A program made the translations under genes and the position numbers. The notes beneath the pieces were generated by a model, which worked only from the letters and a program-made list of their open reading frames with translations, made no database searches and was not told the DNA's origin. From NCBI RefSeq assembly GCF_003334335.1, contig NZ_QOWQ01000025.1: a DNA stretch of 64,000 nt; one strand, 5' to 3'. Below, one piece after another: positions 1,240 to 35,008 of the stretch. The stretch comes from Escherichia coli (GTDB lineage: Bacteria; Pseudomonadota; Gammaproteobacteria; Enterobacterales; Enterobacteriaceae). How positions within the stretch are numbered: position 1 is the first letter of the stretch; each line of letters begins with the position of its first letter.

Positions 1240-1326
1240 GCTGAAAAACATAACCCATAAAATGCTAGCTGTACCAGGAACCACCTCCTTAGCCTGTGTA
1301 ATCTCCCTTACACGGGCTTATTTTTT
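1240..1326 (+). ncRNA. cyaR: CyaR (RyeE) small RNA; its 3' end coincides with the prophage att core
   Basis: Sequence GCTGAAAAACATAACCCATAAAATGCTAGC...CACCTCCTTAGCC...CCCTTACACGGGCTTATTTTTT recognised as CyaR with terminal hairpin and U-run; located between yegQ and ogr. Confidence 0.8.
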
Positions 1327-1327
1327 A
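1300..1327. repeat. attL core (direct repeat AATCTCCCTTACACGGGCTTATTTTTTA)
   Basis: Identical 28-bp sequence found again at 34981-35008 immediately after int. Confidence 0.85.
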
Positions 1328-1390
1328 CGTACAATAAATTGAAATAAAAGGATTTATTTCTGGTCACGTCCACACATTGACCACATCGAC

Positions 1391-1414
1391 AAAAAAGCCC
1401 CTCGACTGAGGGGC
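1391..1414 (-). terminator. Rho-independent terminator downstream of ogr
   Basis: Minus-strand hairpin GCCCCTC-AGTC-GAGGGGC followed by TTTTTT. Confidence 0.55.
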
Positions 1415-1427
1415 TTCCTGTTTGTAA

Positions 1428-1646
1428 TTACATCCACATAATTTGCTGCCCTGACGGCAACGGGTGCGGTCTTACGGCGTGGACTTCTCCCGGCTTCACG
1501 ATGTATCGCTGTACCGACTCATAAGTGATGAACGTGGCGCTGCAATTCACGTTCTGACACTGGTGATAACGCTCTTTTGTCGTGTCAGTGATATAGCGGC
1601 TTGTACGCGCATGTGCGGCATGCTGGCATAAAGGACAATGAAACAT
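1428..1646 (-). CDS. ogr: Ogr zinc-finger late-gene transcription activator (72 aa)
   Basis: MFHCPLCQHAAHARTSRYI...CQNVNCSATF four-Cys zinc finger; start trimmed to the Met giving the 72-aa P2 Ogr length. Confidence 0.9.
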   Translation of the reverse strand: MFHCPLCQHAAHARTSRYITDTTKERYHQCQNVNCSATFITYESVQRYIVKPGEVHAVRPHPLPSGQQIMWM

Positions 1647-1727
1647 CGCGAGCACCTCTTCCGGTTTTGTTGATGTTGCCATTTTAGTTAATTTATCCTT
1701 ATAAAACAAACAGATAAATAAAACACA

Positions 1728-2891
1728 TCACTCATCATCTTCTGTTTCGTACTCCACATCAGAAAGCCTTACCTCAAGCTCCAAAGACGTCGTGAAGCCG
1801 CTATTATTCAGAAAATGTGTCACCTTAGTGATTGTCCAGTCCTGCTCGTCTATGACGCGCTTAAAGCCTGACACTTTAACCGGTGTTTCCGTGTAAATAT
1901 CTGCCCGACCGGTAGCCAGGCTGATGGAGAACTCCGCGACGCCCCGTTGCAGTTTGTCCCACTTAGCCTGAGCGGCGCGCATGGCCTGCGCTTTTGTGGC
2001 ATATACCGTGGTCAGGGCAAAAACGTTGTCAGCCTCACCGGCCATGTATTCACCTTCGCGCGCTTCCGGTACTTTTGGCGCTTTCTTCTGCGTGACTGGT
2101 TTCGCTTTCGGGTGCTCCAGTGCGCGCAGGTGTTTCTCTTTCTTTTTGCGCTTCAGTTTTACCTTCTGCTTTTGTGGCTTCGGGTCTTTGGTGTGTAACC
2201 ACTTTGCCGTTACGCCGGTATAGGCTCCACGGTCAGCAATCGCAAAATGATGGCGGTCGCCGTCGCTGCGGGTGATGGTAATCTGCGGGATTTTTTTACC
2301 GCTGGCCGTCACCCCCTGCCCCGCTTTGAGAAACAGCAGTTTTCCCATTTTTACCGACACCTCGCCGCCGTTGCGTTCAGCAAGGCGGGTCAGGAATTTT
2401 GCATCAGACTCCTGCGACTGGTCGATGTGCGGGATTTTAATTCCGGCCAGTGACGGAGCGACACTGGCTTCCAGCCTGTTACGGGAGGCTATCGCCTCAA
2501 CAATCGCACCGAGCGTGGTGTCATGCCAGGAGCCTTCCCGGCGGGAATTGAGCGTCCCGCGGAAATCTGCACTCCGGGCGCGGATGGTGACCACATCCGG
2601 CGCGCCCCGGTGTTCAACCTCATCAACGGTGAATTTCCCTTTGCATACCAGGGCAAAACCTTTCCAGCCGATATACACCGTCAGGACAGCGCCACGAACC
2701 GGCAGCCCGACCTGCCCGTCGGCATCGTTCAGTTCAATATCAAGCTGGTCAGCTTCAAAGCCCCGGTTATCCGTCAGAGTCATGCTCATCAGACGGTCGC
2801 TGATATTGCCGGTAATATCCCTGCTGTCGAGCATCAGCATGTAATCCGGCGTCAGCGTACTGCCTGCATCAAATGTCAGCGCATCCAGCAT
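1728..2891 (-). CDS. D: Tail protein D (late control gene D)
   Basis: 387-aa ORF, same length and position as P2 gpD next to ogr. Confidence 0.85.
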   Translation of the reverse strand: MLDALTFDAGSTLTPDYMLMLDSRDITGNISDRLMSMTLTDNRGFEADQLDIELNDADGQVGLPVRGAVLTVYIGWKGFALVCKGKFTVDEVEHRGAPDVVTIRARSADFRGTLNSRREGSWHDTTLGAIVEAIASRNRLEASVAPSLAGIKIPHIDQSQESDAKFLTRLAERNGGEVSVKMGKLLFLKAGQGVTASGKKIPQITITRSDGDRHHFAIADRGAYTGVTAKWLHTKDPKPQKQKVKLKRKKKEKHLRALEHPKAKPVTQKKAPKVPEAREGEYMAGEADNVFALTTVYATKAQAMRAAQAKWDKLQRGVAEFSISLATGRADIYTETPVKVSGFKRVIDEQDWTITKVTHFLNNSGFTTSLELEVRLSDVEYETEDDE

Positions 2892-32898: not shown

Positions 32899-33089
32899 TT
32901 CCAGACCCTCCGGCTTTTCAGAAAGGTCAGAGCCTTTTTTAACGGACTCTGTTTTTTGGTGCGGATAATGATTCCCTTACGCCCCTTACCGTGGGTGATG
33001 GTGAAGTCAATCGCCCTAGGGCTTTCGTTACGCAATAACTGAGCAATACAACGAGGCTCATTCATACGGTTCTCCTTAACGTGGTTCAC
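32895..33089 (-). CDS. Hypothetical small phage protein (P2 orf78 position)
   Basis: 64-aa ORF between cox and B. Confidence 0.5.
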   Translation of the reverse strand: MNHVKENRMNEPRCIAQLLRNESPRAIDFTITHGKGRKGIIIRTKKQSPLKKALTFLKSRRVWK

Positions 33090-33351
33090 CGAGACCTAAC
33101 CACATCAACCAGCCGTCACGAATTTCTTTAGGACGGCTTTCATAAGCCAGTTTTAGTCCGTTATTCCATGCCGGAAGGTATACCCAATATTCACCAGCAC
33201 GCCCCGATACTGACTGAGGGTCAGTAATCTCAATAACTGGTAATTTCCCTTTCTCAATCATGCCCCTTACAGCTCTTGGAGTTTTACCAATGAGTTTTGC
33301 AAACTCCTGATAAGGCACGGCATCAGTCACGCTTACAAGCTGTCTATTCAT
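33076..33351 (-). CDS. cox: Cox excisionase / early repressor
   Basis: 91-aa ORF, P2 Cox length, divergent from the C repressor. Confidence 0.8.
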   Translation of the reverse strand: MNRQLVSVTDAVPYQEFAKLIGKTPRAVRGMIEKGKLPVIEITDPQSVSGRAGEYWVYLPAWNNGLKLAYESRPKEIRDGWLMWLGLGEPR

Positions 33352-33472
33352 CTGCTACGATTCTCCCTTAGTGCTTCTAATGGCTCCTAATGGCTAATTA
33401 TTGCCTAAAAGGATAACTCCAGAAGCACAATATTTCACACTATCAGCAAGAAATTACGCAATCGGAGTAATT

Positions 33473-33772
33473 ATGTCAATAGACGTTTCGGAGAAGTTGA
33501 AGCTAATCCGTGAATCTGAAAGGTTAAACCGTAAAGAATTCAGTGAATTAACTGGTGTAGCCTACAGCTCACTTTCGAGCTATGAGAGCCGGTCAAAAAA
33601 CGCTGGAGTTGAAGCCATAATGAAGGTCTTACAACATCCCAGATTTACTAAATATACTTTGTGGTTCATGACTGATCAGGTAGCTCCAGAAGCCGGGCAA
33701 ATTGCGCCCGCTCTCGCACACTTTGGGCAAAACGAAACAACGTCGCCCCACTCCGGTCAAAAGACTGGTTAA
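33473..33772 (+). CDS. C: Immunity repressor C (HTH)
   Basis: 99-aa product from the internal Met (MSIDVSEKLKLIRESERLNRKEFSELTGV), helix-turn-helix, divergent from cox. Confidence 0.8.
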   Translation: MSIDVSEKLKLIRESERLNRKEFSELTGVAYSSLSSYESRSKNAGVEAIMKVLQHPRFTKYTLWFMTDQVAPEAGQIAPALAHFGQNETTSPHSGQKTG

Positions 33773-33887
33773 CAATTTATCGTGAATATATTCATCACAA
33801 GTGCCTACTATTGGTGGCTAAATTTCAGCCACCACGAAAAAAGCGATTAGTAGTAGCAAAAAAAAGTACCACTCGGAGGGTTTTCTG

Positions 33888-34901
33888 ATGGCAATCAAAA
33901 AACTCGATGATGGTCGATATGAAGTGGACATCCGCCCTACTGGACGTAACGGAAAACGCATCCGTAGGAAGTTTGATAAGAAAAGCGAAGCTGTCGCTTT
34001 CGAAAAATACACGTTGTACAACCACCACAATAAAGAATGGCTATCAAAACCAACAGACAAACGACGTCTGTCGGAACTGACACAGATCTGGTGGGATTTA
34101 AAGGGTAAACACGAAGAGCATGGGAAATCTAATCTTGGAAAAATTGAAATCTTCACAAAAATAACGAATGACCCATGCGCATTTCAAATCACGAAATCCC
34201 TTATCAGCCAGTACTGCGCCACCCGAAGAAGTCAGGGTATTAAACCTTCGAGTATCAATCGTGATTTAACATGTATTAGCGGCATGTTTACAGCCCTGAT
34301 TGAAGCGGAGTTATTCTTTGGTGAGCACCCTATCAGAGGGACAAAGAGGCTTAAGGAGGAAAAACCAGAAACAGGCTATCTCACACAGGAAGAAATTGCC
34401 TTACTGCTTGCAGCACTTGACGGCGACAACAAAAAGATTGCGATTCTTTGCCTGAGTACAGGAGCACGTTGGGGAGAAGCAGCTCGTTTGAAAGCAGAAA
34501 ATATCATCCATAACCGCGTCACGTTTGTTAAAACGAAAACAAACAAACCACGCACCGTCCCGATCTCAGAGGCTGTTGCCAAAATGATCGCGGATAACAA
34601 ACGAGGTTTTTTATTCCCTGATGCTGATTACCCTCGCTTCAGACGAACAATGAAAGCAATAAAACCGGATTTGCCAACGGGGCAAGCCACACATGCACTA
34701 AGGCACAGCTTTGCCACTCATTTCATGATTAATGGAGGAAGTATTATCACGCTACAACGGATACTAGGTCACACGCGGATTGAGCAAACTATGGTTTACG
34801 CTCATTTTGCGCCAGAGTACCTTCAGGACGCCATTTCTCTTAATCCGCTAAGAGGTGGTACTGAAGCCGAGAGTGTCCACACCGTGTCCACAGTAGAGTA
34901 A
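33888..34901 (+). CDS. int: Tyrosine integrase
   Basis: 337-aa ORF with HALRHSF...GHTRIEQTMVYAH catalytic region; adjacent to attR. Confidence 0.9.
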   Translation: MAIKKLDDGRYEVDIRPTGRNGKRIRRKFDKKSEAVAFEKYTLYNHHNKEWLSKPTDKRRLSELTQIWWDLKGKHEEHGKSNLGKIEIFTKITNDPCAFQITKSLISQYCATRRSQGIKPSSINRDLTCISGMFTALIEAELFFGEHPIRGTKRLKEEKPETGYLTQEEIALLLAALDGDNKKIAILCLSTGARWGEAARLKAENIIHNRVTFVKTKTNKPRTVPISEAVAKMIADNKRGFLFPDADYPRFRRTMKAIKPDLPTGQATHALRHSFATHFMINGGSIITLQRILGHTRIEQTMVYAHFAPEYLQDAISLNPLRGGTEAESVHTVSTVE

Positions 34902-34980
34902 CGTTTAAGGGCTTTCAGTGGTAATTTATGCCGCTCAAACCCGCATTGTACCGTTGAAAGCCCCTACTGGTGACACCCTA

Positions 34981-35008
34981 AATCTCCCTTACACGGGCTT
35001 ATTTTTTA
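34981..35008. repeat. attR core (direct repeat AATCTCCCTTACACGGGCTTATTTTTTA)
   Basis: Identical to 1300-1327. Confidence 0.85.

Follow-up and report, generated by a model that had tools for sequence, protein, structure and literature searches.

The 64,000-nucleotide stretch of Escherichia coli DNA analyzed here (the window) holds a complete P2-family prophage that, judged on its sequence, is apparently functional. It is very probably a P2-group (Peduovirus) temperate phage that was integrated via Int at the cyaR attB and that carries likely anti-phage cargo. Integration would have occurred by Int-mediated site-specific recombination between the attP core and an identical attB core in the 3' end of cyaR, at the P2 site locI (yegQ/trhP-yegR). 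In the lysogen, the C repressor would silence the early promoter. By analogy with P2, a rare spontaneous switch to Cox expression would lead to excision; rolling-circle replication dependent on A and B would follow, Ogr would activate late transcription, and the 33.68-kb genome would be packaged at cos. Three AT-rich non-essential loci would provide lysogenic-conversion cargo, most likely protecting the host from other phages.

Table 1. Features of the prophage and of its host junctions (window coordinates).
Feature	Position	Strand	Remarks
cyaR sRNA gene, complete	1238-1323	+	Rfam RF00112; final 24 nt within attL core
attL core	1300-1327		28-bp exact direct repeat; equal to P2 attP core
Phage side of attL	1328-1400		IHF site and Int P-arm sites, then ogr terminator; identical to P2 24290-24355
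ogr	1428-1646	-	Late-gene activator, 72 aa; 100% identical to P2
F operon	1728-8030	-	Tail genes, all full length, 98-100% identity to P2: D 1728-2891; U 2891-3370; T 3385-5832; E 5977-6252; E+E' 5825-6252; FII 6309-6827; FI 6840-8030
Cargo block at Z/fun locus	8238-9285		Replaces fun(Z); 33% GC; single ORF
259-aa ORF in fun(Z) block	8431-9210	+	256/259 identical to L-413C hypothetical protein
V operon	9362-14610	-	G 9362-9889; H 9893-12187; I 12198-12725; J 12718-13626; W 13631-13978; V 13975-14610
PycC, predicted pyrimidine cyclase	14711-16099	-	orf30 locus (35% GC); PADLOC PDLC00764, E=1.3e-128, profile 6-448/449
PycTM, predicted transmembrane effector	16074-16613	-	PADLOC PycTM, E=9e-28
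O operon	16629-22838	-	S 16629-17090; R 17083-17550; lysC 17513-17803; lysB 17658-18083; lysA 18071-18496; K 18511-19008; Y 19008-19289; X 19293-19496; L 19496-20005; M 20105-20848; N 20852-21925; O 21984-22838
P, large terminase	23012-24784	+	100% identical to P2
Q, portal	24784-25818	+	99.4% to P2
cos	25986-26004		19-nt cohesive end; exact match to P2
333-aa partner	26142-27143	-	tin/old hotspot; PIN-like N-domain, PD-(D/E)xK-like C-domain
555-aa ABC-type ATPase	27145-28812	-	tin/old (A-Q) hotspot; AAA_15/AAA_21 (Pfam)
Early operon	29052-33351	-	A 29052-31322 (756 aa); orf83 31312-31587; orf82 31584-31808; orf81 31811-32110; orf80 32110-32334; B 32398-32898; orf78 32895-33065; cox 33076-33351
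C immunity repressor	33473-33772	+	99 aa; 65% identical to P2 C
int, tyrosine integrase	33888-34901	+	337 aa; 99.7% identical to P2 Int
attR core	34981-35008		Second 28-bp copy; Cox sites and Int P' arm to its left, from 34860
Host flank with degenerate P2 P arm	35020-35068		Outside prophage; 71% identity over 49 nt, exact 15-mer CATTGACCACATCGA

Backbone and lysogeny switch

The preliminary description had proposed an intact prophage with a cos site and uninterrupted P2 essential gene blocks, and had singled out frameshifts and truncations for checking by alignment to P2 proteins. The alignments bore out the proposal: 37 of the 42 P2 proteins queried by tblastn were found, in P2 order and all in open frames, and no frameshift or truncation was seen among the 37 genes. 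Whole-length alignments without a stop were obtained for 34 of these proteins. The alignment of P2 I starts at residue 5 and that of P2 A stops at residue 754 (of 761), while the mosaic H forms a single open frame of 764 aa. The P2 proteins absent from the tblastn results were Orf30, Fun(Z), Orf91, Tin, and Old; in the prophage, all five genes are replaced by AT-rich cargo. The cohesive end GGCGAGGCGGGGAAAGCAC, next to Q, is that of P2, and neither the -1 frameshift site GGTTTTTTG nor the E+E' product differs from its P2 counterpart. A domesticated tailocin or satellite is ruled out, since the element has genes for the capsid, terminase, replication, and integration, as well as cos.

In comparison to P2 (NC_001895) at locI, the prophage has the same gene order, chromosomal site, attP arms, cos 19-mer, and E/E' frameshift. 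Protein identity is mostly 92-100% (96-100% for most structural proteins), the exceptions being S (57%), C (65%), Cox (84%), Orf81 (89%), and the mosaic H. All differences from P2 are exchanges of known kinds, involving the immunity class, the tail-fibre allele, and the cargo. End to end, the H protein matches the tail fibre of vB_YpM_46, an isolated plaque-forming Yersinia phage, at 99.5% identity; the H gene contains three 132-bp tandem repeats (11180-11669).

The lysogeny switch is of the P2 C/Cox type, as C and Cox align with their P2 counterparts over all 99 and 91 residues, respectively, but the immunity class is other than that of P2. No 186-type cI or tum was found in the prophage; downstream of A, there is nothing but the ATPase pair. 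Cox retains G22, E54, R73, R78, W81, and W84, which are required residues (PMC3936717). The sole phage-database match to the immunity region was vB_EcoM-720R8 (ON470606.1), with 99.8% identity over C-cox. This record corresponds to a predicted prophage rather than to an isolated phage because it includes host flank. P2 and the prophage have the same pO/pP control region (100% identity), and the sequence patterns TGT-N12-CAA in pV and TGT-N12-CCA in pF keep the dyads found in P2's own promoters. At the level of sequence pattern, the late promoters thus fit dependence on Ogr, which is itself unchanged from P2.

Lysogens of the P2 type are not inducible by UV or the SOS response; their phage release is spontaneous only and depends on Cox. 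The earlier suggestion of a potentially inducible prophage has to be qualified, as SOS induction would not be expected of a P2 C/Cox switch. For the same reason, mitomycin C, which had been proposed for induction, is the wrong test. A loose search for LexA boxes returned 11 weak CTG-N10-CAG matches. None was convincing, the closest one (28794) being internal to the ATPase gene, and the result is consistent with the absence of SOS control but is no proof of it.

Attachment site and host junctions

An exact 28-bp direct repeat, AATCTCCCTTACACGGGCTTATTTTTTA, brackets the 33.7-kb element. It corresponds to positions 24355-24382 of P2, i.e. to the annotated 27-nt attP core (P2 24356-24382) plus one base. 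By our own arithmetic, about 1e-8 chance 28-mer repeats are expected within 35 kb. A complete CyaR was detected with Rfam (100.7 bits, the gathering score being 47; match to all 85 model positions), and its sequence is identical to that of K-12 cyaR. The position assigned by Rfam implies that the attL core overlaps the final 24 nt of cyaR, and the terminator of the gene is retained because the phage and host cores are identical. When attP was rebuilt from both junctions, its P and P' arms, IHF site, core, and Cox sites matched those of P2 with 2 mismatches in total. The reconstructed empty attB aligned with real unoccupied sites in a single piece with 100% identity. The element can be assigned to locI, as attP and attB share the same 27-nt core and core copies flank the prophage between yegQ/trhP and yegR. 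The degenerate P arm in the host flank was also found in unoccupied sites and in K-12, and is probably the relic of an older integration.

These results agree with the preliminary description on several points. The limits that it had given, 1300-35008, are the outer edges of both att cores; the 28-bp repeat is exact; and the core does overlap the terminator end of CyaR, the 3' end of cyaR being regenerated at attL. Its statement that K-12 carries only an ogrK/yegZ remnant was also correct, since comparison of the cyaR-yegR interval of MG1655 revealed only the cryptic prophage PR-X (ogrK and the yegZ pseudogene). PR-X has the same attachment site by cyaR and the same attL side (core, P arm, and ogr), but only about 630 bp are left (ogrK and a fragment of gene D) versus a whole phage here.

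A P2-type integrase is present at the cyaR/yegR junction in about 15% (about 1/7) of 5,426 complete E. coli genomes, the int-yegR junction being detected in 809 and the cyaR-ogr junction in 1,126 of them. Since this proportion of the genomes is occupied and cyaR is already listed as a P2 insertion site (PMC3032704), the prophage is ordinary rather than novel. Wphi2 of E. coli W, P2*B of E. coli B, and vB_EcoM-720R8 are likewise P2-like prophages at cyaR/yegR (PMC3032704).

Cargo at three non-essential loci

The GC content of the cargo is 33-35%, versus 50% for the whole prophage. The tin/old (A-Q) hotspot encodes an ATPase and a nuclease-like partner. The DNA of the ATPase gene is 99.8% identical to P2-EC5 (AM157364.1). 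In PADLOC, the ATPase matched only the ATPase components of known systems: NsnB (2e-51), HEC-03B (5e-43), PDC-M55A (5e-41), and, weakly, AriA (3e-28). The PIN-like domain of the partner lacks the usual acidic tetrad; the protein had no Pfam hit at all, a PDB sequence search was empty, and no PADLOC model matched except, marginally, CARF_PDDEXK (E=0.008). The two genes are conserved as an adjacent pair in P2-like prophages, Pseudomonas integrative islands, and chromosomal islets, and the pair has been catalogued, but not assayed (Rousset et al., Table S5A). It is rare, being present in 6 of the 5,426 complete E. coli genomes; in strain E308, the same cargo is carried by a different P2-like prophage, next to pflA.

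The pair resembles PARIS AriAB, Septu PtuAB, Gabija GajAB, P2 Old, and Menshen in combining an AAA_15/AAA_21 ABC ATPase with a nuclease-fold protein and in its mobile-element, defence-hotspot setting. It differs from these systems by its partner, which has no DUF4435/Toprim, HNH, or helicase domain. PARIS was rejected because the match to AriA is weak and the partner, having no Pfam hit, has no DUF4435. Menshen (NsnABC), HEC-03, and PDC-M55 were rejected because only the ATPase component matches and the partner fits none of their other components. The OLD family (P2 Old, Gabija GajA) was rejected because only AAA_15, AAA_21, and AAA_23 were significant in Pfam, with no Toprim domain matched; the OLD-family match of the ATPase in the PDB is weak (1e-6) and confined to the ATPase region. 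We see an even chance that the pair is a previously uncharacterized anti-phage system in which the ATPase would sense infection and control the PIN-like/PD-(D/E)xK-like nuclease partner.

At the S-V (orf30) locus, a PycC-family cyclase gene is adjacent to a TM-type effector gene, and the two are predicted to form a Pycsar system. PycC also matches the cytidylate cyclase of PDB entry 8jsf (E=1.8e-25) and is so named by RefSeq in six genomes; the RefSeq name of PycTM is 'Pycsar system effector family protein'. The ORF of the fun(Z) locus encodes a putative membrane protein that matches phrog_7729 (function listed as unknown), with no Pfam match above threshold and no PADLOC match. NCBIfam returned nothing useful for any cargo protein. 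Promoter and terminator scans over the Pycsar and tin/old cargo gave counts near those of shuffled sequence, and no cargo promoter is therefore claimed. One 10/12 match from these scans is located at 16698-16670 (- strand), within the 3' end of S and upstream of PycTM.

Alternative readings and relation to other P2-like phages

Viability cannot be read from sequence, and the prophage might be defective despite its complete structure. In this reading, a missense or regulatory mutation would block particle formation, and the element would survive only as a vehicle for defence genes. Candidate lesions are the divergent C-terminus of S, the immunity switch, and a late promoter. The best match of S among the phage records searched was that of phage R18C (76% overall), none of these records contained a sequence like its C-terminal 40 or so residues, and the regions upstream of pV and pF differ from P2. 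However, S spans the whole Pfam Phage_tail_S model (2-147 of 148), the late-promoter dyads are kept, and attP, cos, and int are near-identical to those of P2. The open frames and a pN/pS ratio versus P2 of 0.066 (25 genes, 18.5 kb) also argue against decay, and we consider a defective phage unlikely.

The mosaic could also have arisen in the assembly, by merging of two co-resident P2-like prophages. E. coli W is a reported case of such collapsed assemblies (PMC3032704), and the Pycsar and tin/old cargoes occur in disjoint sets of six complete E. coli genomes each. None of the complete E. coli genomes carries both cargoes, and this exact mosaic was therefore not observed elsewhere among them. 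In contrast, the element is collinear with P2 throughout, its excised length would be 33,681 bp (33,593 bp for P2), and both junctions are precise and match one chromosomal site. P2-like phages are known to swap cargo loci by recombination, and the tin/old cargo of E308 resides in another prophage. An artefact is accordingly very improbable, even more so than a defective phage.

A genuine, complete P2-like phage thus remains our preferred reading, and related phages share its modules in other combinations. In vB_EcoM-720R8, the A-Q hotspot is filled with other cargo and the S-V interval is empty. Yersinia phage L-413C has the same 259-aa ORF at its fun(Z) locus, and vB_YpM_46 has the same H allele, but both differ in their integrases, immunity regions, and cargo, and are devoid of Pycsar.

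The prophage itself is of little weight, as a further P2-family case at a textbook site that leaves the CyaR sRNA undisturbed. It is of modest value as a compact example of defence-cargo swapping by P2-like phages, with all three non-essential loci filled. The rare ATPase and nuclease-like pair would lend itself to direct cloning and assay. Defence hotspots of P2 have been described at the A-Q and fun loci (PMC9122126; PMC9519451); the S-V locus, which is not highlighted in these papers and is occupied here by Pycsar, may be a third.

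Integration at the 3' end of cyaR

The window is E. coli chromosome, in which yegQ/trhP and cyaR are followed by a 33.7-kb insert and then by yegR, yegS, and gatR. Positions 34990-63925 are collinear with K-12 throughout, at 97-98% identity, the exception being the IS3E element present in the K-12 gatR gene. No tRNA gene was found in a search of the window. A TPP riboswitch (51256-51352, minus strand) lies upstream of thiM/thiD, its expected place in this part of the E. coli chromosome.

The insert is a P2-like prophage. As claimed in a preliminary description made by a model, it is bounded by an exact 28-bp direct repeat (1300-1327 and 34981-35008), corresponding to positions 24355-24382 of P2, one base more than the annotated 27-nt attP core. 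The left copy shares the last 24 nucleotides of cyaR and, because phage and host cores are the same, this gene is still identical to that of K-12, in agreement with the proposed regeneration of its 3' end. The pre-integration sites were rebuilt by joining the sides of the junctions (34860-35008 and 1328-1400 for the phage; 1100-1327 and 35009-35240 for the host). The rebuilt attP differed from P2 attP by two bases and contained the P arm, IHF site, core, Cox-binding region, and P' arm. The rebuilt attB was 100% identical, in one piece, to unoccupied sites of other strains, such as NZ_AP018808.1. Together, these matches bear the signature of clean Int-mediated integration.

The E. coli W genome paper (PMC3032704) gives 'cyaR RNA' as the site occupied by Wphi2 in strain W, by ogr-D' in K-12, and by P2*B in strain B. 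The cyaR-ogr junction was present in 1,126, and the P2-type int-yegR junction in 809, of 5,426 complete E. coli genomes, so that roughly 15% harbor a substantial P2-like prophage at cyaR and further genomes harbor remnants. As noted in the preliminary description, K-12 has only such a remnant, PR-X (ogrK and the yegZ pseudogene). At the right end of PR-X (2780-2830 of the K-12 locus, L002), a degenerate att core, AGAACTCTGCTACACGGGCTTATTTTTTT, is fused to a fragment of gene D; the deletion that produced PR-X thus extended from a point inside D into the attR core. The host flank to the right of attB (35020-35068; about 2830-2880 of L002 in K-12) also carries a degenerate version of the P2 P arm. 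Aligned over 49 nt at 71% identity, it includes a perfectly matching 15-mer, CATTGACCACATCGA, and is interrupted by a 16-nt gap at the would-be IHF site. Its presence in unoccupied sites and in K-12 suggests that even an 'empty' attB still bears the trace of an earlier P2-like integration.

Features of the prophage and its flanks (window coordinates)
Feature	Position	Strand	Remarks
yegQ/trhP	46-1155
cyaR	1238-1323		complete; Rfam, 100.7 bits
fun(Z) locus block	8238-9285		one 259-aa ORF
259-aa ORF	8431-9210	+	N-terminal hydrophobic segment
Tandem repeats inside H	11180-11669		three x 132 bp (44 aa); middle of H mosaic
orf30 (S-V) locus block	14611-16942		Pycsar system
PycC	14711-16099		PADLOC E = 1e-128
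PycTM	16074-16613		PADLOC E = 9e-28
cos	25986-26004		19-nt cohesive end; exact match to P2
tin/old locus block	26033-29062		AAA_15/AAA_21 ATPase (555 aa) and 333-aa protein
Two-gene module	26142-28812	-	rare
gatR	36879-37658		intact, 259 aa; K-12 MG1655 copy interrupted by IS3E

Backbone integrity and immunity switch

The intact gene blocks and cos site noted in the preliminary description were borne out by comparison with P2, which revealed neither frameshift nor truncation in the backbone genes. By tblastn, 37 of the 42 P2 proteins were matched. Of these, 34 were aligned over their entire length with no stop codon; the alignment of I began at residue 5, that of A ended at residue 754 (of 761), and H was mosaic yet open. 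Identity was mostly 92-100%, with lower values for S (57%), C (65%), cox (84%), orf81 (89%), and the mosaic 764-aa H. S covered the Pfam Phage_tail_S model entirely, and Cox kept the residues reported to be required in P2 Cox (PMC3936717). The E/E' slippery site and frameshift product were the same as in P2 and the pO/pP control region was 100% identical; pV and pF have diverged, with conservation of TGT-N12-CAA and TGT-N12-CCA dyads, as at P2's own sites. In the 25 genes aligned without gaps (18.5 kb), the differences from P2 comprised 444 synonymous and 94 non-synonymous changes, a pN/pS of 0.066 that gives no hint of decay. On excision, the genome would measure 33,681 bp (33,593 bp for P2), and the prophage is predicted to be viable.

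Whole-genome comparison identified five segments replaced relative to P2: the immunity region, the middle of H, and the fun(Z), orf30, and tin/old loci. The immunity region, comprising C and the start of cox, is of another class than that of P2 and is 99.8% identical to ON470606.1, a prophage record from the same locus. The lysis-lysogeny switch is nevertheless of the P2 C/Cox type. P2 lysogens with this switch are not induced by the SOS response and release phage spontaneously, at low frequency, via Cox. A search for CTG-N10-CAG revealed no convincing LexA box. The proposal of a potentially inducible phage thus needs a qualification: mitomycin C is unsuited as a test since the C/Cox switch is not SOS-inducible. 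Aligned along its entire length, the H allele is 99.5% identical to the tail fibre of vB_YpM_46, an isolated phage; the same 764-aa allele is present in phages plating on Yersinia pestis.

Cargo at the fun(Z), orf30, and tin/old loci

The three cargo blocks have a GC content of 33-35% (50% for the prophage). Two of the loci, A-Q (tin/old) and fun, have been described as defence hotspots (PMC9122126; PMC9519451); the S-V (orf30) locus is not discussed in these papers. At fun(Z), the ORF matches an unannotated (hypothetical) L-413C protein at 256 of 259 residues, with nothing above threshold in Pfam and no match in PADLOC. The PHROG model is confined to residues 79-259, which means that the actual start codon may lie within the ORF.

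At orf30, the swapped block includes the 3' two-thirds of S. The Pycsar genes, effector before cyclase, begin 15 bp past the S stop codon in the same direction as the late operon, unlike P2 orf30. This cargo was found in only 6 of the 5,426 genomes and in none of the phage records searched. Expression in the lysogen is predicted.

The tin/old segment, which shares 99.8% identity with the P2-EC5 fragment AM157364.1, was also found in 6 of the 5,426 genomes, which differ as a set from those with Pycsar. The 333-aa protein encoded with the ATPase has no Pfam match. An AlphaFold2 model based on 36 homologues (pLDDT 86) predicts a PIN-like fold combined with a PD-(D/E)xK-like fold. By our reading, D213 and E227 are among the invariant residues, at the expected strand positions; the lysine two residues past E227 and the acidic tetrad of the PIN-like half are missing. 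In all the other loci examined, the partner gene was directly 3' of an AAA_15/21 ATPase gene: on integrative islands of Pseudomonas, on two Enterobacter-type contigs with a common msrA/tamA neighbourhood, in a P2-like prophage of Hafnia, where it occupies the same Q-A position, and on the chromosome of a member of the Budviciaceae. The pair is conserved across several kinds of mobile element. PADLOC partner models of Menshen, HEC-03, PDC-M55, PARIS, Septu, and Gabija did not match. Table S5A of Rousset et al. (2022) includes the exact pair (WP_024249463 and WP_024249462), under the entry 'AAA_15/AAA_21 + hypothetical', outside the set of systems assayed there. A defence activity is predicted for the cargo. 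E. coli E308 (NZ_CP030281.1) harbors the same tin/old cargo (99.9% identical) in another P2-like prophage, which has a different integrase, is integrated beside pflA, and has several genes annotated as frameshifted; this illustrates cargo exchange between P2-like phages.

Together, these results confirm the observation of a P2-like prophage at cyaR and support its interpretation. The prophage belongs to a well-known kind and is ordinary among its members. Only two leads hold some interest: the ATPase/PIN-PD-(D/E)xK pair, which is uncharacterised, and the occupation of the S-V locus by a defence system.
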